From the IMG/VR virus record IMGVR_UViG_3300035703_000025, positions 32,001-96,000 of that record: a stretch of DNA of 64,000 nucleotides. One strand, given 5' to 3'. The notes beneath the pieces were generated by a model. It saw only the letters and a list, made by a program, of their open reading frames with translations. It was not told the DNA's origin and ran no database searches. The position numbers were made by a program, and so were the translations under genes. The stretch comes from a virus. This document shows positions 1 to 56,545 of this stretch, in pieces. How positions within the stretch are numbered: position 1 is the stretch's first letter; each line of letters starts with the position of its first letter.

Positions 1-43
1 CACTCTGCCACAGCGAGTAGTCATCTTCTGAAGAACGCTCATG

Positions 44-517
44 TCAGATCCTCTCCCACCGGTTGCGCATGCGTTCAACGGCCTCGGTGGGTACGCCGTG
101 AACACTACCAAAGTCGTTTTGGCACTCAATCACACACACAACCCAGTCAGCGAACTCCTCACGCTTGACAAGGTCCATGTACGGTTCCATCTCCCATAGC
201 TGAGAGAACGTGTTTGAGACTGCGACTGGCCGCAGATCGTGAAGAACGTTTCTGTAGACGTCGTTGCCATCACGATCGGTCTCACCGAAACACTCCTCCC
301 TGTATCGGCTGCGCATTGCGTCTATCGTCCGAAGAAGACAGTCGTGATGCGCGCTTCGCAGATTGAATGGATCGAACTTGTAATCGCCGCTCACTGGATC
401 AGTGAAGTACTGATCAGCCTCAAAGAAGCTGTCTCTGCCAACGAGACGCTTTGCGAGTGTGGACTTTCCAGATCCTGGAAGACCACGAATCAGGTACAGA
501 GTCATGACCTTTCTCAC
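44..517 (-). CDS. P-loop kinase (AAA_33 / polynucleotide-kinase-like)
   Basis: Walker A LIRGLPGSGKST, EADQYF, VSNTFSQLWEM and HGVP motifs typical of phage AAA_33 proteins. Start placed at GTG 517 (GGAGG upstream, GTGA overlap); ATG 505 is an alternative. Confidence 0.85.
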   Translation of the reverse strand: MRKVMTLYLIRGLPGSGKSTLAKRLVGRDSFFEADQYFTDPVSGDYKFDPFNLRSAHHDCLLRTIDAMRSRYREECFGETDRDGNDVYRNVLHDLRPVAVSNTFSQLWEMEPYMDLVKREEFADWVVCVIECQNDFGSVHGVPTEAVERMRNRWERI

Positions 518-861
518 AGCTCGCCCTCCTTCTTGCTGAAGCAGTCCCAGCTCCACCTTTTTGCGATGTACCGTGCGTCTCTCTCATTGCCGTACGCAGT
601 CATGTTGCAGTACATCTTTCTCGCCTCATCACGCTCTTCCGTGAGGCTGCTGATCTTCTTGTCGAGGCGATCGATCACTCCCTGCATGTCGTGCATGTGG
701 CGATCGCACACCTGCAGAGCCTCGACCGCCTTTGCTGCTTCTTCGAGCATCAGCACGAGCTTGCCCCACTTGCCCTCCTCGAACCCCGGCAGATCTTGCC
801 CGCCCTCACGATAGTCTTTTGCGGTGGACATCAGGGCCTCAACCAATTCCTTAGCGTTCAT
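514..861 (-). CDS. hypothetical coiled-coil protein
   Basis: GAAAGGAAGG SD upstream; LTEERDEARKMYC...ARYIAKRWSWDCF tail is of a type common in phage early regions. Confidence 0.75.
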   Translation of the reverse strand: MNAKELVEALMSTAKDYREGGQDLPGFEEGKWGKLVLMLEEAAKAVEALQVCDRHMHDMQGVIDRLDKKISSLTEERDEARKMYCNMTAYGNERDARYIAKRWSWDCFSKKEGEL

Positions 862-902
862 ACAAGCACCTTCCTTTCTGAAGGATCTAATGGCACCATG
901 CC

Positions 903-940
903 AAAAGAAAAAGCTCGTACCGGATTTCTCCGATACGAGC
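903..940 (-). terminator. intrinsic terminator
   Basis: Minus strand GCTCGTATCGGA-GAAA-TCCGGTACGAGC followed by TTTTTCTTTT. Confidence 0.85.
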
Positions 941-964
941 CGTTGAGCTAGAGACAGCGAACTG

Positions 965-1105
965 TCACAGGGCCGAAGCCTTTTCGCAGGACTGAAGCAC
1001 GTCCACCCTCGTATACACGATACGACAGGCTTCCGCGAAACTGATGTTCTTACGCCGCATCAGGCATCGAACTACCTGATGGATGAGCTTGTCAATGTCT
1101 GACAT
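965..1105 (-). CDS. hypothetical 46-aa protein (not in ORF track)
   Basis: Manual translation MSDIDKLIHQVVRCLMRRKNISFAEACRIVYTRVDVLQSCEKASAL; AAGGAG SD; fills the gap between the upstream gene and the terminator. Confidence 0.65.
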   Translation of the reverse strand: MSDIDKLIHQVVRCLMRRKNISFAEACRIVYTRVDVLQSCEKASAL

Positions 1106-1107
1106 GG

Positions 1108-1341
1108 TCACTCCTTCTCGTTGAGGATCTTGTGGACCTCAGTGCTCCAGAAGAACATGTCTTCGATGATCGACTTCATGCGGAGCAAGATGAGCAAACC
1201 AATTGCAAAAATGGTGAACTCATTGACTGTCGCCTTGTGCGGGATTGGAAGCCACAGCTGAGCCACACCGTAGATGGCCCCAATAATCATCCACGCCAAA
1301 AAGAGAAACCGTGCAACGGACGAGAAGAAACGCTTGACCAT
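1108..1341 (-). CDS. small membrane protein (2 predicted TM helices)
   Basis: ATG 1341 after AAAGGA; hydrophobic segments FLFLAWMIIGAIYGVAQLWL and FTIFAIGLLILL. Confidence 0.7.
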   Translation of the reverse strand: MVKRFFSSVARFLFLAWMIIGAIYGVAQLWLPIPHKATVNEFTIFAIGLLILLRMKSIIEDMFFWSTEVHKILNEKE

Positions 1342-1402
1342 AACAGATCCTTTGCCATTGGCAAAAGAGTAGAAAACCCGTGGCGTACATACCACGGGTG
1401 AA

Positions 1403-1476
1403 CACCCCAGACAGGATTCGAACCTGTAACCTGCCGCTTAGAAGGCGGCTGCTCTATCCGTTTGAGCTACTGGGGT
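1403..1476 (-). tRNA. tRNA-Arg (anticodon UCU), CCA not encoded
   Basis: Acceptor stem ACCCCAG/CTGGGGT, D arm GCTC-AAACGGATA-GAGC, anticodon arm GCCGC-CTTCTAA-GCGGC, T arm ACAGG-TTCGAAT-CCTGT. Confidence 0.96.
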
Positions 1477-1484
1477 TGAGGAGT

Positions 1485-1838
1485 TTAACGGTCCATGAAC
1501 GTCAGGAGCGCCTGCATCGCCTCCTCCGTGGCGCCGATGCAGAGGTCCATGGTGCGCGGCTCACCGTCGCTGTCGGGCGAGATGCCGGAGTAGTACAGCT
1601 CCTTGATCGCGTCCCACTTGTTCACGACGTCCTCGAAGTCGATGTGGCTCCCGCTGAGCGACTCCGAGAGCGCCACGATCGCGTTGCGCATCTCGCAGGG
1701 CTTGCTGTCGGACTCGTCGGCGCCCGTCATGAGCACCGCCTGGAACGCCAACTGGTCCACCTGGATCGACATCATCGCCAGGGACGTGAGCGCCGCGTTG
1801 CAGCACAGGAAGTGAACCGGGGTCTTCTTCTGACGCAT
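1485..1838 (-). CDS. hypothetical protein
   Basis: AGGAG SD, strong GC3 bias in this frame, co-directional with neighbours. Confidence 0.7.
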   Translation of the reverse strand: MRQKKTPVHFLCCNAALTSLAMMSIQVDQLAFQAVLMTGADESDSKPCEMRNAIVALSESLSGSHIDFEDVVNKWDAIKELYYSGISPDSDGEPRTMDLCIGATEEAMQALLTFMDR

Positions 1839-1941
1839 AGTGAATCTCCTATGAATGGAGAGAGTGAAACCGGTGGCATACGTACCACCGTAAATCCCAC
1901 CACAGCACTTAAGCCATGGTGGGAGTGTTGAGGCTGATCAC

Positions 1942-2466
1942 TCAGCCGTGGAAACCAGTGGCCCTGCAATTCTCTAGAAACTGGAAGAGCGCTGCAGTGA
2001 CGTGCACATCACGCACACAGTAGTCCTCCATTTCCTGCGACCACTGAGACCAATCAGTGTGCTTGCAGAAGTCGCCCTTGTCCATCCCAAGGCGAAGCCC
2101 CCACGCCTCCAGACTGTGTCGCCCGCGCAACGCCTCTGGCACCCTGTACTCGTTGAACCCATTGGGGAACAAGGACTTTGCGGTTCGCCGCGTGTCGTTC
2201 AGCGTCACCCACGATGGCAGCACGATCTTGTTGTGGGTGCACATCACCCTGCGGTCGAACTCCACGTTGAACCCGATGATCTCCTGCGCGTTGAGCGCGA
2301 TGAAGTTGATCCCGCTCCGCACTTCCGACTTGCGGAACCGGAACTCCCGACCAGTGTCCACGTCCAACGCACACACGCAGTGCACGGTGTGCAGCGACGA
2401 CGTGTCTCCAGCGTTCCACGACGCCCAGTCGATTGCGTTCGTCTCCGTATCAACGACGAGTCTCAC
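1942..2466 (-). CDS. stand-alone 3'-5' exonuclease, PolA/T7 gp5-type (DEDDy)
   Basis: ExoI VVDTETN, ExoII GFNVEFD, HSLEAWGLRLG, ExoIII EMEDYCVRDV; ends before any polymerase domain. Confidence 0.85.
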   Translation of the reverse strand: MRLVVDTETNAIDWASWNAGDTSSLHTVHCVCALDVDTGREFRFRKSEVRSGINFIALNAQEIIGFNVEFDRRVMCTHNKIVLPSWVTLNDTRRTAKSLFPNGFNEYRVPEALRGRHSLEAWGLRLGMDKGDFCKHTDWSQWSQEMEDYCVRDVHVTAALFQFLENCRATGFHG

Positions 2467-2873
2467 AGGACACCTCCTCTTGCGGCGAGTGCCGCCTTGA
2501 AGTCATGCACCAGAGCAGCGCTTGCCCTGCGTGCTACCGCCTCCACTCTACGAGAGGGAAGCGGACGCCACTGCTGCGCAGCGTCGCGCAGCTTCACGTG
2601 GCGATTGCGAGCCTTCACTTTTCTTGGCAGACGACCAGGAAGTGGTAGTGGTTCAGTGGGTCGCACCACTGTGTGACCGAGCGCGATTGCCCTGCGCTCT
2701 AGCCCCACATTCGGGATGCGATTACCACCCTGCTGGTCCACCTGGAAGCCATTGGCTGCAGAGCGCATGAGTGTGCGCCCTGGGGTCTTGGGCTTCGGGA
2801 ACCGGTTCATGGTCAAGCCACCGCTCCACTCGTTGGTGCAGTAGTGACCTCGTAACTGCCATTTCTGGTTCAT
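2463..2873 (-). CDS. hypothetical basic protein
   Basis: ATG 2873 after GAAAGGAGGA; Arg-rich C-terminal half; GTGA overlap with the exonuclease start. Confidence 0.7.
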   Translation of the reverse strand: MNQKWQLRGHYCTNEWSGGLTMNRFPKPKTPGRTLMRSAANGFQVDQQGGNRIPNVGLERRAIALGHTVVRPTEPLPLPGRLPRKVKARNRHVKLRDAAQQWRPLPSRRVEAVARRASAALVHDFKAALAARGGVL

Positions 2874-2886
2874 GTGAGTCCTCCTT

Positions 2887-3267
2887 TCAGGACTGCATGC
2901 TGTTGAACTCGTTGGGGTCGTAGGCCAGGGACTCATCCACGATGGGCGCCTCGCCCCTCAGTCGCACAGACGACGGCAGCGGCACACCAGACAGGTGCTC
3001 CTTCTTTGGTTCCTCCACCGTGAACGGCTCCACCGTCACACGCGATGGCATTCGCTGAATCAGCATCATCACCTCCGTCAGCTCCTTGGTGCCCAGGTAG
3101 TCAAAGACCTCATCAGCGGACGGCTGCACGTACGTCCGATCCTCCGACACCCTGTAGAACACCTGACGAGGCCCCATCACGCTGATCTTCACGCAGTTCC
3201 AAGACGGAACAATCGTCAGGCTCCAACCATTCACCCAAGTGAACGTCGTCTGATTGCTGATCTTCAT
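2887..3267 (-). CDS. hypothetical protein
   Basis: GAAAGGTAGGA SD upstream of ATG; co-directional with the block. Confidence 0.7.
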   Translation of the reverse strand: MKISNQTTFTWVNGWSLTIVPSWNCVKISVMGPRQVFYRVSEDRTYVQPSADEVFDYLGTKELTEVMMLIQRMPSRVTVEPFTVEEPKKEHLSGVPLPSSVRLRGEAPIVDESLAYDPNEFNSMQS

Positions 3268-3269
3268 AC

Positions 3270-4576
3270 CAAGATCCTACCTTTCTGCACTTTACGAGTG
3301 CAAGTAACATGAGGACTTTGAAACCGCACGCTGCGGTCCATAAGTGAATGCCCACCGCAGCCAGTCAAGGCTGGGTGAGACTGTGTGCCCATAGCGGATG
3401 TTTGACCGCCAGGGTCTTGCCGGTAGATCCGGGAAACCCACAGCACAGCGTTTCCGCCGTGCTGGGGTAGGGAAACGGGGCGTGATAGCACGCTAGCCCC
3501 GCCCATCTGCAGCCATGCGTGCGGCTGCGGGTTACTGGTGACTGTGACTCGGCTACTGCAGTAGAATCGTCCGCTTACCCCACTACTGTGTAGCCTACAG
3601 ATACCGCCGTGTCATGCGTGGCTGGTCGCTAAGCAACCCCGCATGATCGACTCCCTGGTGCGCATGCCGCGCGTATGCAACCCCGTAGCCGTTGGCTACC
3701 GGACATAGCGCACCGTTGTCGTCAGCCCGGAGGCTGACCGCCCTGCAGGTTAGTGATCATCATCGGGAAGCCATCCCATCAGCGCAAGCGCGTCACTTGG
3801 GAATATGTCCGGATGATCGGATCAGTCGCCGCAGTATTGGATCTAGGTCGTGGGCATCATCGACCGTGGCATATCCTCGCTGGCTACTTATCAGGGTCAC
3901 GAGCACCCCAGCCGTAGCGAATCCGTTAGGAAACTTCGCAGCCGCTGCGTAGATATCAGACCGCCTGGCACGCACACTATCACGCCTTGACGCGATAGCG
4001 AACGCACCCACGTATCACCACAGTAGGACCGCCGCGCACCTGCCGGCCTAGCCGGGGAGCACGCGACAGCCGCCCTACGGTATCTGTCGGTGGAACTAGC
4101 CTATCGTACCCTTCGACCGTTGGCGAGCATGGCCTAGCGCTACTCGCTGTATCATATGGGTACTGTACTTCGCAGCGCCATCCATGACGCCACTACTTGC
4201 CCTGCAGGGTACAGCGTCCACACGCTGTCCGTCCCGCTCCGCTAGCGCACTACGCGCTATCGGCAGCGAAGCATCCAGGATAACCGACCTCCGTTGAGGG
4301 GACCGCTACGCTTGCGCGTCTCGGTCGGGCCGGCTCGGCGCGCCCTAGCGCACCGTTCCCGATCTTGGAAACCAGGGGTTCCGCGACTCCCGCGCTTCGA
4401 TTGCCCGTGTTCCGGGCGGCGGGGCCTCACCAGGCGCCTCTTTCGTTCCCGCCACGCGGATTCCGGTTTCGGCTCGGGGCCGAGCGGCAAGCCGCGCGCA
4501 CGGGGCGTAGGTCGCTACTAGTGCGCGGTACTATGTAATCCCCGGCGCCCGCCGTTAGGCGGGGCCGGAGGGGGGG
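3270..4576 (-). ncRNA. candidate large structured non-coding RNA (~1.3 kb), family unknown
   Basis: No convincing SD-led ORF. Dense hairpins whose mismatches become G-U pairs on the minus strand; GNRA loops at 3441-3464 and 4308-4319; 10-bp long-range helix 3597-3606/4078-4087. Boundaries are approximate. Confidence 0.6.
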
Positions 4577-5053
4577 TCACTCGGCGGAGGCCAACCACGC
4601 GGCCACCTCGGACTTCGAGGGGGGCAGCGTCAGGCCGTCGATGAGGTCGCGGACGGTCAAGGCCCGGTCGGCGGCCACGCCCGGGATGCGGCCGATGGTA
4701 ACCCCATGCGGATTCGGGATGGCCGCGAGGAGGTCGACCGCGCCCGCGAACCATGCCATGGCCTCGGCGGTCCGAGCCTGGGCCTGCAGCCACGGGGCCT
4801 GGGTCGTCGGGCACGGGGTGCGGGCGTACACGCCGGCGGCCTTGGTAGCGTCGCGCATGGCCTGGGCCGGCAGGCGGCGGGCCTTGCGGCGGTCGGTGAG
4901 GTCGCCGAGGACGGCCTTGCCGAACGTGGCCGGCGCGGCCAGCACGCGGTCGAGGCCCCAATCGGCCACCTCGGTGGTGACGGTCGAGGCCGCGAGCCGC
5001 AGGACGGCAGCGGGCGAGGCGGGGGCGGTGCGGGCGGAAGACTTGGTGGGCAT
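4577..5053 (-). CDS. hypothetical Ala-rich protein, first gene of the GC-rich block
   Basis: ATG 5053 after CAGGAG; near-total GC3 in this frame; overlapping frames are Pro/Arg-rich shadows. Confidence 0.7.
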   Translation of the reverse strand: MPTKSSARTAPASPAAVLRLAASTVTTEVADWGLDRVLAAPATFGKAVLGDLTDRRKARRLPAQAMRDATKAAGVYARTPCPTTQAPWLQAQARTAEAMAWFAGAVDLLAAIPNPHGVTIGRIPGVAADRALTVRDLIDGLTLPPSKSEVAAWLASAE

Positions 5054-5226
5054 GAGACAACTCCTGGCGCTGTGCGCCGTGGGGGGTGATTGTCGGGCAC
5101 GCGCCCGACACCAATGGGTGCTCCGGAGGGCGCGGGGGTTCACCCAATTTCACAGGCGAAAAACCAAATATGAGGACTTATTACACCAGCGAATCGTTTT
5201 TGAAAAGGCTGGGCGCTCGCCATAAA

Positions 5227-5748
5227 TCAGGACTTTGCCCAGCTTTTTCCGTTTCGTATGTTACGTATTGCGCCTGCGCCAACACCAAATCTGTCGGCAA
5301 TTACACTGTCCAGGAATCCAATCTCTATCATTTTTCGTATTTCGTCCACGTCTGCCTGGGTTAATTTGCTGAAGCGCGAGTTTTCCCCCGATATTCTGCT
5401 TAAATCTCTGTTTTCTGTCTGTTCTGCCTTTGTTGCGTACCGTAAATTGGAGAGTGCATTATTTGTTCGCACTCTGTCAATGTGGTCAACAGTCATTTCG
5501 TCTGGACACTCTCCCTGGTAAACCTCCATAACCAGTCTGTGCACAAATATCTTTTCTGCTCCTGTTCCCATGGGTTTTCTCAAAACAACAAAAGCGTAGC
5601 CTTCTGTGTCGATAAAAGGTTCAATAGTTCTAGGGGGCTTTGAGTGAATTCTGCCACGGTTAAAAACAGGCCGCGCCTTTTCACGGACGCGACCTTCGGT
5701 GCTGACTTCGTAGTTGGGGTTTCTAGCTAGGGGCTTCCAGGTTTCCAC
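5227..5748 (-). CDS. NUMOD4-HNH homing endonuclease with C-terminal HTH
   Basis: ETWKPL..NYEVSTEGRVR (NUMOD4), VHRLV, VDHIDRVRTNNALSNL (HNH), SKLTQADVDEIR..IADRFGV. Confidence 0.9.
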   Translation of the reverse strand: METWKPLARNPNYEVSTEGRVREKARPVFNRGRIHSKPPRTIEPFIDTEGYAFVVLRKPMGTGAEKIFVHRLVMEVYQGECPDEMTVDHIDRVRTNNALSNLRYATKAEQTENRDLSRISGENSRFSKLTQADVDEIRKMIEIGFLDSVIADRFGVGAGAIRNIRNGKSWAKS

Positions 5749-5753
5749 CCATT

Positions 5754-5759
5754 ATTATA
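5754..5759 (-). promoter_or_regulatory. sigma70-like -10 box, leaderless
   Basis: TATAAT, 5 nt, then GTG 5748. Confidence 0.6.
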
Positions 5760-5764
5760 GGTTT

Positions 5765-6448
5765 TTATCCTAATACAGTACCACCAAAGCACTGTGGCGC
5801 ATAGCCCTCAAACCATTGGTGTGCCAAAGACATTAAATTTGCCCTGAGTACGTCTTCAGACCAGATCGGATTTAGTCTTCTTAGTTCTTCCGTTTGGTTT
5901 TTTAAATACCTCATAAAATCTGGCTTCCAATCTCCTCTTTTACCACTGCTCCAAACAGTAAGATCACCAAGCGCCTTCATCACGCATTCGTTGCTAGAAT
6001 ACAAACTCCCGATTATATCGTAAACCTCCTGAGTAGCTGGATCCATTTTTTGCTTTATTTTTTCCGCTGACTCATCCATTCGAGTTCGCATTCTTTCAGA
6101 AGCGCCAACGGCTGCGGACAGCTTGTTTAAAATATCAACAAACGAGTTGGCCTTTTTACTGTTTTTCTTTACCCAGTTCAGGTATATTTTCCTTGCTCGT
6201 GCCTGCAGTCTGTCCTTTTGGGCCTGAGACAGGAATTTAGCCTGTGGGATTCGCGCAATCGCATTAAGAATGTGCGCGCGGTCAACTTTGCCGTCCGCGT
6301 CCTTGTACGGAAAGTGTCGTAGCGAACGAGGCTTGATTTTCCCCTCGGAGTCCCTTTTGCCGCCAGCCTCAATATAAAGAAAAGCACTGTCAGGGAGATC
6401 ATTTTTATACCTAGTTGTCCACTCTGCGCCTTGAGAGAAGTTTTCCAT
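5765..6448 (-). CDS. putative virion/head-associated protein (DUF6582-like N-terminal domain)
   Basis: NDLPDSAF..RHFPYKD..HILNAIARIPQ motif recalled from phage head-associated proteins; internal leader-like helix FVDILNKLSAAVGA; GTGTAT promoter. Confidence 0.6.
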   Translation of the reverse strand: MENFSQGAEWTTRYKNDLPDSAFLYIEAGGKRDSEGKIKPRSLRHFPYKDADGKVDRAHILNAIARIPQAKFLSQAQKDRLQARARKIYLNWVKKNSKKANSFVDILNKLSAAVGASERMRTRMDESAEKIKQKMDPATQEVYDIIGSLYSSNECVMKALGDLTVWSSGKRGDWKPDFMRYLKNQTEELRRLNPIWSEDVLRANLMSLAHQWFEGYAPQCFGGTVLG

Positions 6449-6456
6449 ATTTGTAA

Positions 6457-6462
6457 ATACAC
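6457..6462 (-). promoter_or_regulatory. GTGTAT late promoter motif
   Basis: GTGTAT, 8 nt, then ATG 6448. Confidence 0.7.
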
Positions 6463-6468
6463 AAGCCC

Positions 6469-7494
6469 TTAAACAGAGCCGTTCTGTATTGCCCTTTCTA
6501 TTGATTCACGGGTCCAGCCTTCAGTCTGTATGCCAAGCGCTCCCGCTAGAGCCAAAACAGCAACAGCTAGAGCTGGCGCTGCTGTTCCACCAGAAGCCGC
6601 TGCCGCAACCGCTGCAGCTATGGCCAAGCTTATAAGAACAGTTATTTTTATTGTTTCTTCATTTTCTCTTATGAAAGTGCTTACAGAAGACACAAAGGAT
6701 GAAATGGCGTTTCTTGCCCCACCTACGCTGTCTATCACAATGCCGCCAATTCCTAGCACGTAGGTTGAAAGCCGATCCCACAGTTCCTCACAGGCCTTTT
6801 CTCGCTGTTCTGGTGTCGCGTTTATAGTGTTAAGTAATTGATTCAGTTCACCCCACGTTGCGCACAAATCAACTAGTGCAGCATCGCTAAAACCACCAAG
6901 TCGTATTTTCATAAAACGAACTAACTGCTCCTCAAAACTAATGTTGTTAACTGGCGCAATACCCAAAGAGGAAAGGGCTTCAGAAAGAGCATTAGCCAAA
7001 ATAGTACCAAAATGATTTATAAAGCTTTCCATATTTGACGCCCAAAAATTACTAAGCCATCTAAATCTTCTAAATATTTCATCAACCTCACGGAAAAAAC
7101 TTTGAAGTGCGTCGCTACATAATACGTTTATAAACATAGACCAGGGGCCACTGTTATCAACAACCCTTTGTCCAGCTGTTATTAATGCGACTGCATCTGA
7201 AATCCAACCAATAGCAGATCTAGTTATTACTCTTTGAAGCGACTGAAGAGCGCTCATAAATCTAAATATGTCTTTAGGTATTTCTGCTCTAGCTTTAGTC
7301 TGGTCATTTATTGTTGGCACGCATTCCATAAAAGAAATAAGGGCCTGCTGCCATGTTGTGCTTGATTCAATTCTGCGCACACAGTCTTTTTCTGTTACAA
7401 CAACAGACTCTTTTGCAGACGGATCCGCCTGCTCGTAAACCTCTGCTTGTTTGTTTAAAGCGGATATAAATCTGTAATTTAGTTCTTTTTTCAT
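6469..7494 (-). CDS. helical protein with C-terminal hydrophobic hairpin (putative membrane-inserting cargo)
   Basis: Leader RFISALNKQAEV; TVLISLAIAAAVAAAASGGTAAPALAVAVLALAGALGI; paralog of 7498..8328. Confidence 0.7.
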   Translation of the reverse strand: MKKELNYRFISALNKQAEVYEQADPSAKESVVVTEKDCVRRIESSTTWQQALISFMECVPTINDQTKARAEIPKDIFRFMSALQSLQRVITRSAIGWISDAVALITAGQRVVDNSGPWSMFINVLCSDALQSFFREVDEIFRRFRWLSNFWASNMESFINHFGTILANALSEALSSLGIAPVNNISFEEQLVRFMKIRLGGFSDAALVDLCATWGELNQLLNTINATPEQREKACEELWDRLSTYVLGIGGIVIDSVGGARNAISSFVSSVSTFIRENEETIKITVLISLAIAAAVAAAASGGTAAPALAVAVLALAGALGIQTEGWTRESIERAIQNGSV

Positions 7495-7497
7495 TTT

Positions 7498-8328
7498 TTA
7501 TCCAATGGTTATTCCATAACCCGAAAGTTCCTCTTCCGATGGAGGCTCCATACCCAACACAATAAAAGCGGCAACTAATATTGCAAGTGTTGGCGCTGTT
7601 ATTGGTGTGCTCGTGCCGCCGCTCGCAATAGTTATTCCAAGCGCAGCAATCATTGCTATCACCAAAGCGGGACGCAAATCAATTTGGGTCAATCCGCGAG
7701 ACAAAACACCGTAAGCAGACGCTAAAACAGCTGAAAAAGATTCAAAATTGGCCATAATCGTATTAATCAATTCACCAACCTCTTCTTCGGTCATTTGAGC
7801 TACTGTTCTGCAAAAAGCAGAAATGTTGTTTGGTCCGCCAACCAAAAGATCGCGTAAAAAATTCTTAAAGTTTTGACTTCCAAAAACAGCACTGTTCATA
7901 CCGTAGAAAGTTTCGCCAAGAAGAAAGCCTAGCCTGCCAACAATTTGGCTAACCAGTATTTGAACTAGCGCTGGATTTGCCAAAAATTGAGACATCACCC
8001 CAATATCACGGAGTGTTTTTATTATTGTTTCTAGAAAAGAACACAGCATACTAAAAAAATCTTTCCAGTTTGATACTGAACTAGATCTTATTGTTGCTAT
8101 TGCGAGTTCACCAAGCTTAGTAACGATCATTCCAACGACAATAGCGGAGCTTATCACGCCGCCACCTGCAGTAAAACAAGATCGAACACTAGAAACCAGA
8201 TCTTCTATTGTTTTTGCAATTGATATTTCTGGACATGATTCAATATCAGTTTTTTTAGGCTGGTCGTCTAGACCTAAAACCTCTACCTGTTTATTAATAG
8301 CAGCCACAAACAAACGGTACGCGTCCAT
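7498..8328 (-). CDS. helical protein with C-terminal hydrophobic hairpin, paralog of 6469..7494
   Basis: Leader RLFVAAINKQVEV; ALVIAMIAALGITIASGGTSTPITAPTLAILVAAFIVLG. Confidence 0.7.
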   Translation of the reverse strand: MDAYRLFVAAINKQVEVLGLDDQPKKTDIESCPEISIAKTIEDLVSSVRSCFTAGGGVISSAIVVGMIVTKLGELAIATIRSSSVSNWKDFFSMLCSFLETIIKTLRDIGVMSQFLANPALVQILVSQIVGRLGFLLGETFYGMNSAVFGSQNFKNFLRDLLVGGPNNISAFCRTVAQMTEEEVGELINTIMANFESFSAVLASAYGVLSRGLTQIDLRPALVIAMIAALGITIASGGTSTPITAPTLAILVAAFIVLGMEPPSEEELSGYGITIG

Positions 8329-8336
8329 GGCTTAAG

Positions 8337-8368
8337 ATACACTTTAAAATAAAAAATATTCAGTGTAT
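8337..8368. promoter_or_regulatory. divergent pair of GTGTAT promoter motifs
   Basis: Minus-strand GTGTAT 8342-8337 is 8 nt before ATG 8328; plus-strand GTGTAT 8363-8368 is 10 nt before ATG 8379. Confidence 0.7.
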
Positions 8369-8378
8369 TAATACCTGT

Positions 8379-9062
8379 ATGAACCTGAAAACAGTCATAG
8401 CAAAGCATTTGGCCGTAAGTGCAGCACCACCGTCTACACCACCAAGATGTCGTGAGATAACTGCAAAGTGGGATTCAATTCGCCAAAAAATAAACCAGGC
8501 GTACGAGGCTGGCAGGCAGCAGATCGAAGGCCTTACTTACGGCACACTTGGTCAGGTTTGGGAGTTTGAAATATGGAATACGCAAAACGGAAATCCATTT
8601 CCGCCAAATATGTTTAAGTTTTCAGTTGATCAGGGTGTTTACGTTGCAACAAATCAATATCCTCCAGCTGCTGCCGCACAAAATCCACAATTGGCGGCCC
8701 CAGAGACCCAAAACGATCCAAATTTAGCAAAAAAAGAAAAGCTTCTTGCGTGCATAAAAACACTAAGAAAGTGCGCGCTTCTACGGGGATATAAAGACCC
8801 GAGATCAGGTAAATACATACGCGGAAAATTTGATCTGATGTATTCGGCAGATGTTCTTGAGGCTATAGAGCTAGCAACAAAGGGATGTGAGCCTTACGCG
8901 TCTGCTGGTGGCATGAAAAACGCAACCACGTCTCAAAAGCGAGACTTTTTTAAAGAGCAAATCCGTGGTATGGAGGCCGAGTTTAGATCTAACGTTAATG
9001 ATACGCCGGCGTGTAAACCGTGCACGCCACAAACAGCTCCAGCAGGAGTAAATCCACAATGA
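8379..9062 (+). CDS. Cys-containing leader-bearing hypothetical protein
   Basis: MNLKTVIAKHLAVSAA leader, Pro linker, then CREITAKWD, similar to the next gene. Confidence 0.7.
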   Translation: MNLKTVIAKHLAVSAAPPSTPPRCREITAKWDSIRQKINQAYEAGRQQIEGLTYGTLGQVWEFEIWNTQNGNPFPPNMFKFSVDQGVYVATNQYPPAAAAQNPQLAAPETQNDPNLAKKEKLLACIKTLRKCALLRGYKDPRSGKYIRGKFDLMYSADVLEAIELATKGCEPYASAGGMKNATTSQKRDFFKEQIRGMEAEFRSNVNDTPACKPCTPQTAPAGVNPQ

Positions 9063-55000: not shown

Positions 55001-56545
55001 TTAACTTATTTCTGTTAAAGACTCTACTGACCATCCACTTCCGGTTCCTCTTATGGTAAACTCATATTTGCCGTCCTTTCTAATTTTTGATTTGTGTTTT
55101 GCGTATGCATTTGGGAAAATAACGATTCTTATGCTGCCACTTGAGTCAGTAATGTTTATTTGACACATTTCCTGGCCAGGATTTTCACCCTTCTTCGTGA
55201 CTGTAAACGTTGTGTCTACAATTGATGCAATAACCCTTTTTGTGATACCTTTGTTGTTTCGCAGCATCCTGTGGCAATCCTTGCATGTAAAGTCAGCTAT
55301 ATCTTTGTACTCGTCTACTGCGCTGCAAGTCATTGCAATAGACAAAAGTTCTTGTTCACTAGAGGCCTTCCAGTCAGTTGTGTCCTTTGCGTTTTCATCT
55401 ATTGCATCAGCCTCAGATTTGACTATTGGCTTTCTCTTTTTAGTACTAATAGTCTCAGAACACTCAATCATTTTTTGCTTAATTAATGATACCGAGTTGT
55501 TCGGTTCATTTTTACAAATTTCGTCCACAACGTACTTAACCTCTCTTGGTGTTAGTTCGTTCATGGCACCAACGACATCAAGCATTGTTTTTCTTCCAAT
55601 TCCGTACAAATCACAAGCCCCACTTTTTATTAGGGATTCTACACCAAGAGATCGCAAAGAATCATTTTCCCTATAGGCAAGGTTTATGAATTCAGAAAAG
55701 TGCTTTGGTCTATTCGTCTTTATTGTTTCCCAGTCCTTCTCTCCAAACTGCTTGATGTGGCTAAGACCAAATATAATACTCTTTGAGTTATTATCGTTGA
55801 CAATTTTAAAGTCTTTTGACGACTCCGTGATTGTTGGTGGAAGTATTTTTATACCGCAAAGCTTTGCCTCGTTAATCATATCGTGAAGCTCTTCTCTTGA
55901 TTTTTGTCTAGCCTTGGAGTATGTTAGGTATGTGCAATAAAACTCATGCGGAAAGTTCGCCTTCATATACGCAGTTCTGTAAGACCACACTGCATATTTT
56001 TTCGCGTGAGCATCATTAAAGGCGTATCTTCCAGCGCTTTCAATCATTGAAAACAGCTGCTCTGCCAAGTCCTTTGACTTTCCATTTTTTACACAACCAG
56101 AAACAAACTTTTCACGAAGATCACTGATTACTTTATAATCCTTCTTTCCAATGCCCTTTCTTAGCTTGTCAACAATAACTAGACGGTCAATATAAGGCAT
56201 TTCCTTCCATGCGATCTCACCACCAAACTTCATTAGCTGTTCCTGGTAAATGAGAACGCCGCTTGTTGGTTGCAGAATGCGGTCAACGTCCTCGTCACCA
56301 AACTTGTGGGCAACATCTAGACCGTTCTTTACTCTCGCGTATTTTTCAGTCATTCCAGACTCAAGACACGCCGGTCTAATAAGTGCAAGAACCGCGCTAA
56401 GTTCATTTATGTTTTTAGGCTTTATCTTGGAGGCCCACTGCTTTCCAAGCTCGCTTTCGAGTTGAAAAACACCGCCAGTGTTTCCACTTTGAATTAAGCG
56501 CCATGTTTTGTCGTTTTTAAAATTTACTTCTTCGATGTTGAACAT
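55001..56545 (-). CDS. dnaE: DNA polymerase III alpha subunit, C-terminal half (split DnaE)
   Basis: GVFQLES, ALIRPA, GVLIYQEQLM, LRKGIGKK, YAFNDAHA, AYMKANFP, FGLSHIK (HhH), OB fold; no PHP domain and no PDID or K.D.LG motif. Confidence 0.9.
   Translation of the reverse strand: MFNIEEVNFKNDKTWRLIQSGNTGGVFQLESELGKQWASKIKPKNINELSAVLALIRPACLESGMTEKYARVKNGLDVAHKFGDEDVDRILQPTSGVLIYQEQLMKFGGEIAWKEMPYIDRLVIVDKLRKGIGKKDYKVISDLREKFVSGCVKNGKSKDLAEQLFSMIESAGRYAFNDAHAKKYAVWSYRTAYMKANFPHEFYCTYLTYSKARQKSREELHDMINEAKLCGIKILPPTITESSKDFKIVNDNNSKSIIFGLSHIKQFGEKDWETIKTNRPKHFSEFINLAYRENDSLRSLGVESLIKSGACDLYGIGRKTMLDVVGAMNELTPREVKYVVDEICKNEPNNSVSLIKQKMIECSETISTKKRKPIVKSEADAIDENAKDTTDWKASSEQELLSIAMTCSAVDEYKDIADFTCKDCHRMLRNNKGITKRVIASIVDTTFTVTKKGENPGQEMCQINITDSSGSIRIVIFPNAYAKHKSKIRKDGKYEFTIRGTGSGWSVESLTEIS

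Follow-up and report, generated by a model that had tools for sequence, protein, structure and literature searches.

A well-supported new family of very large structured RNA in a group of uncultured lake phages

The uncultured phage recorded in IMG/VR as IMGVR_UViG_3300035703_000025 is represented by 125,471 base pairs (bp) with direct terminal repeats, of which bases 32,001-96,000 were analysed here as a single stretch of 64 kilobases (kb), referred to below as the window; coordinates are those of the window unless the genome is named. Between the stop codon of an upstream gene (4577) and the ATG of a downstream gene (3267) the window contains a gap with no credible open reading frame (ORF): all six frames carry 13-18 stops, and none stays open for more than 114 codons. 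The segment from ~3320 to 4536 on the minus strand of this gap very probably encodes a conserved, non-coding, structured RNA, which is ~1.2 kb long in this phage and ~1.1 kb in its relatives. The pairing of its ~50 helices, arranged in several closed domains, has been maintained by selection, and the element represents a new, well-supported family of very large structured RNAs in phages, found to date in a single group of lake phages. The proposal of the initial annotation that the gap may hold a new class of large non-coding RNA is supported by the folding, the covariation and the lack of an Rfam match.

Homologues were sought with the two flanking proteins as queries first, and then at the DNA level. 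In the contigs G003 and G004 the element is 99% identical to that of the window, the surrounding 5.7 kb being 93% identical; in G002 it is 88-98% identical, and in G001 80-87% identical, with adjoining genes that align at ~70% nucleotide identity. An IMG/VR scan for exact matches to a 20-mer of the best-conserved block recovered every known homologue and added the contig L014, and a second exact motif retrieved the same five contigs. The 20-mer also occurs in five contigs of the JGI metagenomes, of which two are IMG/VR records already known and one is identical to G001 over the RNA; the contigs bearing the element from this source are L048, L049 and L051. The homologues fall into four lineages, namely A (the window, G003 and G004), B (G002 and L048), C (G001 and L049) and D (L014 and L051), all belonging to one group of related uncultured phages with a common gene order. 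Identical junctions are seen in contigs from several samples, and hence the element is not an assembly chimera. Neither the 20-mer nor a 26-mer motif has a match in the genomes of 185,579 prokaryote species (one genome each), blastn with the element region as query matched none of 50,697 phage records, and a profile of the upstream protein found no contigs in IMG/VR beyond the known ones. The neighbouring exonuclease gene, used as a query, yielded 30 loci (28 from distant phages), and an nhmmer search with a profile of the RNA against 53 loci and the genome recovered the known group only. Five further relatives of the upstream protein (66-80% identical) probably mark additional lineages of the RNA. 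Thirteen lake-water metagenome runs from 13 studies contain at least 0.81 of the sampled words of the region, even with the best holder, possibly the source sample, excluded; the phage group is therefore common in lakes.

The structural case is carried by covariation. Pairs were counted on the RNAalifold consensus of an alignment of five full-length sequences (the window, G003, G002, G001 and L051) representing the four lineages in 1,315 columns, which comprises 393 pairs in 51 helices, or 1,928 cells. Standard pairs occupy 96.1% of these cells, against a mean of 88.3% after shuffling and 35-39% when the partners are slid by 1-3 columns. Pair-preserving changes on both sides were found in 91 pairs, against 8-17 when the 3' partners are slid by 1-3 columns, a control that retains the phylogeny, and 49 +/- 4.4 when the 3' letters are shuffled within columns, with none of 500 shuffles reaching 91. 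The consensus was derived from the same sequences, which biases the counts in favour of the structure, but the five- to eleven-fold excess over the slid controls lies far beyond such a bias. Covariation is strongest in the most diverged part, the 5' domain, in which the window and G001 are ~51% identical (alignment columns 18-360); here 32 of the 51 pairs are compensated, and several occur as three or four pair types. The GCAA and GAAA tetraloops are invariant across the aligned sequences, and other loops are swapped between lineages (CAAG, CACG, UGCG or UUCG in one; UCCG, UUCG, CCAG or UCAG in another). From 5' to 3' along the RNA, the identity between the window and G001 runs through 51%, 80%, 92%, 61% (a variable stretch) and 100% (the last 47 columns), and ~100 nucleotides (nt) around 3545-3645 are identical in all lineages. 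The 92-100% identity of the 3' core compares with ~70% at the nucleotide level for the flanking genes and 25% for the upstream protein; the fold of the RNA is thus more strongly constrained than the neighbouring genes.

It is the minus-strand transcript that folds, and it runs in the same direction as the flanking genes. This strand is assigned because G·U pairs far exceed A·C pairs in the consensus structure (43-55 versus 1-6 per sequence), and because the consensus energy is lower on the minus strand (-473 kcal/mol, versus -393 for the reverse complement). The structure projected onto the window itself has 55 G·U and 2 A·C pairs, which bears out the earlier observation that imperfect pairs read as G-U rather than A-C on this strand. 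The element is not protein-coding, recoded stops included. Substitutions between lineages fall on the three codon positions without periodicity (49/52/47, 111/97/110 and 95/97/106), the indels between lineages are 1, 2, 3, 5, 6, 8, 30, 74 and 76 nt long, and the frame-breaking ones among them (1, 2, 5, 8, 74 and 76 nt) disrupt every frame. Since all three stop codons occur in each minus-strand frame, reassignment of a stop opens no frame. Codon-type conservation of ORFs such as 3793-4011 had been raised as the alternative to covariation; in the homologues it is the covariation that is found, while substitutions are even over codon positions and an indel of 74-76 nt cuts through that ORF.

The minimum free energy of the whole region, folded as a 1,307-nt minus strand, is -619 kcal/mol, compared with -567 +/- 9.4 for 30 dinucleotide-preserving shuffles (z = -5.5), so that it folds better than shuffled sequence, as the initial annotation had anticipated; on the plus strand z is -2.6. 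When 200-nt segments are slid along the minus strand, the mean z is ~-1.8 inside 3301-4600 versus ~-0.8 in flanking coding segments, and 3 of the 12 segments inside the region have z < -2.5, the strongest being -4.8 at 3301-3500. Because these local values are only modestly below those of the flanks, folding energy by itself is weak evidence, and the earlier caution that a high G+C content inflates hairpin counts was well placed. A check of the sequence by eye located all the stems that had been quoted for the region:

3464-3441, minus strand: stem CAGCACGGCG-GAAA-CGCTGTGCTG with a GNRA loop
4319-4308, minus strand: stem ACGC-GCAA-GCGT with a GNRA loop
4000-3975, minus strand: stem CGCTATCGCGT...GCGTGATAGTG
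4228-4211, minus strand: stem ACAGCGT-GTGG-ACGCTGT
3738-3721, minus strand: stem GTCAGCC-TCCG-GGCTGAC
3699-3685, minus strand: stem GTAGCC-AAC-GGCTAC
4087-4078 with 3606-3597, minus strand: long-range helix ACAGATACCG / CGGTATCTGT

All of these recur as helices of the RNAalifold consensus, and compensatory changes are present in five of the seven local stems that had been quoted. None of the five sequences shows a change in the GTAGCC stem or in the long-range helix, and covariation is neutral on both. The latter, first described as a perfect helix of 10 bp, is indeed present, and in the consensus it extends to 11 bp (4088-4078 with 3607-3597).

The consensus divides the RNA into the following parts, listed from 5' to 3':

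4528-4536, minus strand: ACAUAG(U/A)AC motif, invariant in five of five sequences amid differing sequence; the sole minus-strand copy in the genome
4381-4528, minus strand: domain 1, the 5' domain, variable in sequence with its pairing kept (helices 2-8)
4200-4377, minus strand: domain 2, a multi-helix domain with the invariant GCAA loop (4315-4312) and the GUGG-loop hairpin (4228-4211) (helices 9-17)
4172-4193, minus strand: optional hairpin of 22 nt in lineages A and B; a 30-nt gap in C and D
4106-4163, minus strand: domain 4, a nearly invariant three-helix element (helices 19-21)
3597-4088, minus strand: central domain of ~490 nt, closed by the 11-bp helix (helix 23, 11 of 11 pairs invariant)
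3752-3828 (approximate), minus strand: inserted hairpin of 74-76 nt in a loop, in lineage A only; a short (G)UAAC loop in B, C and D
3551-3595, minus strand: invariant hairpin (helices 41-42) with a 9-nt loop, AAGCGGACG, identical in five of five sequences
3436-3528, minus strand: three 3' hairpins (helices 44-47), including the GAAA-loop stem 3464-3441
3350-3429, minus strand: variable 3' region, 61% identical between the window and G001; helix 48 poorly supported (80% of cells paired)
3321-3339, minus strand: invariant terminal hairpin GGACCGCA-GCG-UGCGGUUU, 100% identical in all lineages; part of helix 51

In domain 2, covarying pairs make up 2 of 5 in the closing helix 9, 6 of 10 in helix 10 and 4 of 9 in helix 17. 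In the optional hairpin (helix 18), a comparison of the window with G002 shows covariation at 3 of 8 pairs. Domain 4 shows the opposite behaviour, with 14 of its 18 pairs never varying, three varying on one side and one departing by unpaired cells only. The central domain contains the interrupted stems 4078-4023 and 4000-3975; its inner closing helices 24, 26 and 28 covary, as do 8 of the 25 pairs of helix 27, whose loop is swapped between CAAG, UGCG and UUCG. The indel that corresponds to the inserted hairpin is 76 nt long relative to G002 and 74 nt long relative to G001. The hairpin at 3551-3595 lies within the longest invariant block, which was the source of the 20-mer search pattern. Among the 3' hairpins, helix 47 has two pairs changed on both sides and three changed on one side under its invariant GAAA loop. 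The ACAUAG(U/A)AC motif, with the first covarying helix directly 3' to it, is taken provisionally as the 5' boundary, and could either belong to a promoter or represent a single-stranded 5' end. The terminal hairpin at 3321-3339 serves, also provisionally, as the 3' boundary. Rather than belonging to the RNA, the ~50 nt that precede the ATG (3268-3319) more likely form the leader of the downstream gene, because the sequence AAAGUCCUCA found there is anti-Shine-Dalgarno-like and is paired by RNAalifold with the downstream ribosome-binding site.

Element-derived contigs were obtained from lake metatranscriptomes. Six such runs hold 0.07-0.15 of the sampled words; four of these were mapped to positions 1-9000 of the window and used, and all four yielded contigs of the element:

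4016-4278: RNA-library contig with 1 difference
3977-4127: RNA-library contig with 1 difference
3720-3742 joined to 3835-3944: RNA-library contig with the 16-nt short-form loop of lineage B at the joint
3578-3746 and 3544-3736: RNA-library contigs with 2 differences each
3259-3335: RNA-library contig with 8 letters and 2 gaps different

No contig from the four runs falls in the bins spanning 4501-9000; the runs had been selected for holding the element, and the uncovered parts prove nothing. For the same reason, that the runs were chosen for holding this stretch, a higher abundance of the RNA than of its flanks is not claimed. In three of the four runs the only contigs outside the RNA were foreign tRNA look-alikes at 1406-1473.

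The element matches no known family. In a cmscan search against all 4227 models of Rfam 15, tRNA was the sole match in the window at gathering scores. At E<=10, v-snoRNA-1 (a herpesvirus small nucleolar RNA) and radC appeared on 3100-4750 with E>1 and 15-17 bits, against gathering scores of 40-75, and were dismissed as chance; three divergent homologues gave no match at E<=5. RNase P RNA, transfer-messenger RNA (tmRNA), 6S RNA and ribosomal RNA fragments were discarded as candidates, having no Rfam match and, for tmRNA, no ARAGORN call. The reading of the initial annotation, in which no tmRNA, RNase P or group I/II intron core could be recognised, agrees with the corresponding Rfam models, which are likewise without a match. 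In the literature we found no description of a phage non-coding RNA longer than 1 kb; an IMG/VR-wide survey reports, in the part available to us, candidates of 30-151 bases only, and its supplements may list short pieces of the element (PMC10690425).

The closest comparisons are offered by other giant RNAs of phages and bacteria. As presented in a recent study (PMC12286853, Nature 2025), GOLLD, ROOL and OLE form unprecedented RNA-only assemblies, which in GOLLD and ROOL are cages whose purpose is given as unknown; GOLLD combines a conserved 3' part with a variable 5' part, and changes in palindromic loops are used as a signal of symmetric kissing loops. As far as these descriptions go, the element resembles GOLLD in being phage-encoded, found in lake metagenomes, very large and rich in helices, and more loosely in having a tRNA gene in the neighbourhood. 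It also resembles GOLLD in layout, though not by homology, since its 5' part is 51%, its middle 80% and its 3' core and end 92-100% identical between the window and G001. It differs in its length of ~1.1-1.2 kb, many GOLLD members being described as longer than 800 nt, and the GOLLD model of Rfam does not match it even when the filters are relaxed to E<=10. With ROOL (Rumen-Originating, Ornate, Large), as described there, it shares a phage- or prophage-borne location and an ornate, multi-domain structure without a known protein partner, but it does not match the Rfam model and comes from another habitat and another phage group. ROOL is roughly half as long as the element, which would be longer than the ornate RNAs known from phages. 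OLE, HEARO and raiA are similarly large, covariation-supported, multi-helix RNAs; the element matches none of their models, and they are mostly chromosomal whereas it is confined to one lake-phage group. Phage group I and group II introns are comparable in size range and in being GC-rich structured RNAs in an AT-rich genome, and an HNH gene lies ~0.7 kb upstream of the element. However, their models do not match, the element lies between complete ORFs, and the RNA contigs contain no spliced joint. An intron of either group was also rejected on the basis of the surroundings of the element: the genes on both sides are complete, the upstream one with a conserved C-terminus and a stop codon of its own, the downstream one with a Shine-Dalgarno sequence and an ATG of its own.

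Taken as a whole, these observations are probably best explained by a single stable RNA that acts in trans in an architectural capacity, of the GOLLD/ROOL kind, an explanation we favour with some reserve. That the element is one molecule rather than several is fairly likely in its own right. Its assignment to an architectural or assembly-forming role, rather than to catalysis or cis-regulation, is a tentative suggestion. Two features provide candidate tertiary or intermolecular contacts. A loop of domain 2 (4350-4344) might form a long-range pairing of 7 bp, with three covarying pairs, with 3413-3407; and a hairpin loop at 4051-4047 changes between lineages from one palindrome, CUAG, to another, CAUG, by two adjacent substitutions. 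Two further candidates for additional pairing were rejected as they overlap well-supported nested helices.

Several points weigh against this explanation. The homologues represent only four lineages of one phage group, and many covarying cells therein reflect few evolutionary events. The 11-bp helix that closes the central domain is invariant, hence no covariation test of it is possible. Between the 5' domains (4106-4528) and the rest of the RNA, its central and 3' domains, there is no helix with covariation support; the sole candidate link is the pairing between 4350-4344 and 3413-3407, which with four lineages could have arisen by chance. Contigs of the region occur in all four RNA libraries, in line with the transcript that the initial annotation expected, but this support is weak, given that the contigs have a depth of ~2, carry no strand or end information and could derive from carried-over DNA. 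Scans for sigma-70 promoters and for terminators found nothing on the minus strand, so that the ends of the RNA remain inferred. The idea of an oligomer comes from the single CUAG to CAUG loop swap and from analogy, and one such swap is insufficient for a claim of oligomerisation. Finally, the nearest tRNA gene is neither adjacent to nor embedded in the element, as a comparison with GOLLD might lead one to expect; the location near tRNAs to which the initial annotation alluded holds in a loose sense, in that one tRNA-Arg gene lies ~1.8 kb downstream.

The alternative that fares best divides the element into two or more RNAs arranged head to tail, such as one from the variable 5' part (4106-4528) and another from the conserved central and 3' parts (3320-4088), either made separately or cut apart. 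The missing covarying link between these parts fits such a division, as does the closure of each domain by its own helix, and the parts have evolved unequally (51% versus 80-100% identity between the window and G001). On the other hand, the RNA-library contig 4016-4278 spans from domain 2 into the central domain, the candidate pairing with its three covarying pairs would bridge the two parts, and the minus-strand scans revealed no promoter- or terminator-like site between them. The parts also occur together and in the same order in the five full-length sequences of all four lineages. We therefore regard separate RNAs as unlikely, if still the foremost competitor of a single molecule.

A catalytic RNA, either a new large ribozyme or a very divergent self-splicing or self-processing element, appears improbable. 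The size and multi-domain layout would suit a ribozyme, and so would a near-invariant core with conserved unpaired stretches, exemplified by the 9-nt loop at 3551-3595 and the ~100 invariant nucleotides at 3545-3645. Against this, no group I, group II, RNase P or small-ribozyme model matches even at E<=10, and no gene is interrupted, the upstream stop and the downstream Shine-Dalgarno sequence and ATG being intact. Moreover, no RNA contig skips the element, and the sole joint seen in these contigs is the indel that distinguishes the lineages.

A cis-acting role is best considered along with the genes and signals on either side of the element:

4577-5053, minus strand: upstream gene for a conserved 158-residue protein, directly 5' of the RNA in every lineage
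4541-4567, minus strand: GC-rich hairpin after the upstream stop, terminator-like but without a U tract
3310-3319, minus strand: copy of a junction motif, AAAGUCCUCA (AAAGTCCTCA at 3319), with one mismatch to AAACUCCUCA; anti-Shine-Dalgarno-like
3268-3309, minus strand: downstream leader with a small hairpin (3301-3287), absent from G001 and L051, and the Shine-Dalgarno sequence AAAGGUAGGA (3284-3275)
2887-3267, minus strand: downstream gene for a 126-residue protein of no family, with its own Shine-Dalgarno sequence and ATG
1477-1486, minus strand: second copy of the junction 10-mer in the window
30801, 30089, 28406, 26490 and 16979 in the genome, minus strand: further copies of the junction 10-mer

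Under this alternative the element would be a leader or processing platform for the downstream early genes, sequestering a ribosome-binding site or stabilising the transcript, with no role in trans. It is oriented like the next gene and reaches right up to the ribosome-binding site of that gene, the terminator scan found no site between RNA and gene, and the 100% conserved 3' end is accompanied by the anti-Shine-Dalgarno-like motif, which RNAalifold pairs with the AGGAU of the downstream Shine-Dalgarno region; AAAGUCCUCA could thus pair with that ribosome-binding site. However, 1.2 kb and ~50 helices are far beyond the needs of known leaders. The genome carries seven copies of the junction 10-mer AAACTCCTCA, each of which lies on the minus strand at a junction within the early arm; six of these junctions have no large RNA, pointing to a general signal. 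Several copies lie 10-25 nt before a Shine-Dalgarno sequence that is pairable with CUCCU, and the copy at 1477-1486 abuts the 5' end of the tRNA-Arg gene. The 10-mer may be a phage promoter, a processing signal or a module that sequesters ribosome-binding sites. In addition, the downstream gene has been exchanged for an unrelated one in G003, G004 and L048 with the RNA unchanged and retained up to the ATG (replacement genes L004:7886-8209 and L048:582-920; the L004 alignment stops at window position 3260 and restarts at 2894). As the RNA is kept while its downstream gene is exchanged, it is an independent module, and as the break point falls at the start codon, its 3' edge is apparently a recombination hot spot. 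A purely cis-acting element is accordingly about as improbable as a catalytic one.

On the 5' side, the 158-residue protein has homologues at the same position that are 49% (G002), 25% (G001) and 29% (L047) identical to it, the overall range being 98% to 25%, and it has six database relatives. It matches no Pfam or PHROG family, and its AF2 model (pLDDT 78) has no fold match in the PDB at E<=0.001. At the position of the hairpin 4541-4567, the sequence differs in G002 and G001 but again forms a hairpin; the terminator scan gave no sites, this hairpin included.

The phage itself is a tailed phage, as indicated by recognisable genes for a large terminase, a portal, a tape-measure protein of 1,903 residues and a DNA polymerase. 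No cultured phage has a large terminase more than 29% identical to its own, and neither host nor family can be named. The element lies in the GC-rich early or DNA-metabolism arm, where all surrounding genes are on the minus strand. This GC-rich block of ~8 kb (genome 29,000-37,150, of which the part in the window is 1-5150) has 54-77% G+C, with a rise to 71% given for genome 29-37.2 kb, compared with ~40% for the whole genome, and it ends at a sharp cliff around window position 5150 beside an HNH endonuclease gene. The gene for the 158-residue protein has ~75% G+C in the window. Since stretches of ~0.9-1 kb around its homologues in G002, G001 and L047 have only 56-62%, the GC enrichment is lineage- and locus-specific.

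This setting bears on a DNA-level explanation, in which the hairpins would serve as an origin of replication, in packaging or recombination, or as a structure in single-stranded DNA, and to which we assign a very low probability. The region does lie in a GC-anomalous block near the cliff, and most of the helices would form on the other strand too, the antisense consensus having 86 covarying pairs. However, the excess of G·U over A·C pairs and the difference of 80 kcal/mol in consensus energy distinguish the two strands, the GNRA and UNCG loops show swaps of the RNA type, and contigs were found in RNA libraries; nhmmer found no second copy in the genome, no search aimed at iterons or direct repeats having been made. 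That nothing functional is present, the region being GC-rich decayed or foreign DNA with hairpins that arise from base composition, is scarcely credible in spite of the inflating effect of high G+C and the modest local z-scores, given covariation far above both controls, conservation above that of the neighbouring genes and the whole-region z of -5.5.

Some other genes of the neighbourhood deserve mention:

5227-5748, minus strand: homing-endonuclease gene (HNH_3 and NUMOD4), just past the GC cliff and ~0.7 kb upstream of the element
1403-1476: tRNA-Arg gene, the sole tRNA of the window
44-556, minus strand: AAA_33 or polynucleotide-kinase-like ATPase of 170 residues, near the tRNA-Arg gene
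1942-2466, minus strand: 3'-5' exonuclease subunit of 174 residues, in the early arm
55001-56545, minus strand: DNA polymerase of 514 residues

Near the HNH gene, G002 has ~1.9 kb of additional DNA between the homologues of window positions 5239 and 5179. The kinase-like ATPase could be involved in RNA repair. The DNA polymerase is apparently split, with the exonuclease subunit encoded ~53 kb away from the polymerase.

Returning to the single trans-acting RNA, it would be expressed with the early or DNA-metabolism genes and accumulate as a stable species, either starting near the ACAUAG(U/A)AC motif or being processed from a read-through transcript. It would then act through its three-dimensional shape, as a compact tertiary fold and possibly by forming a homo-oligomer or by scaffolding proteins of the phage or the host during infection; the always-adjacent 158-residue protein is perhaps a partner. 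A more far-reaching version is rather doubtful: the element would be an undescribed giant RNA class and the largest ornate phage non-coding RNA, forming a homo-oligomeric cage or scaffold larger than that of GOLLD, or else a new ribozyme, and it would be used early in infection, possibly with the 158-residue protein.

Large, intricately folded non-coding RNAs are very rare beyond the ribosome, RNase P and self-splicing introns, and each new class of them has started structural and functional research. To date the present family has been found in a single phage group, and genetics must await the identification of a host. Its existence indicates that kilobase-sized structured RNAs can escape surveys restricted to short motifs. 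With ~50 helices over ~1.2 kb, 91 compensated pairs in four lineages and no Rfam match, the element is a strong candidate for cryo-electron microscopy, and it offers a way into what phages use giant RNAs for.

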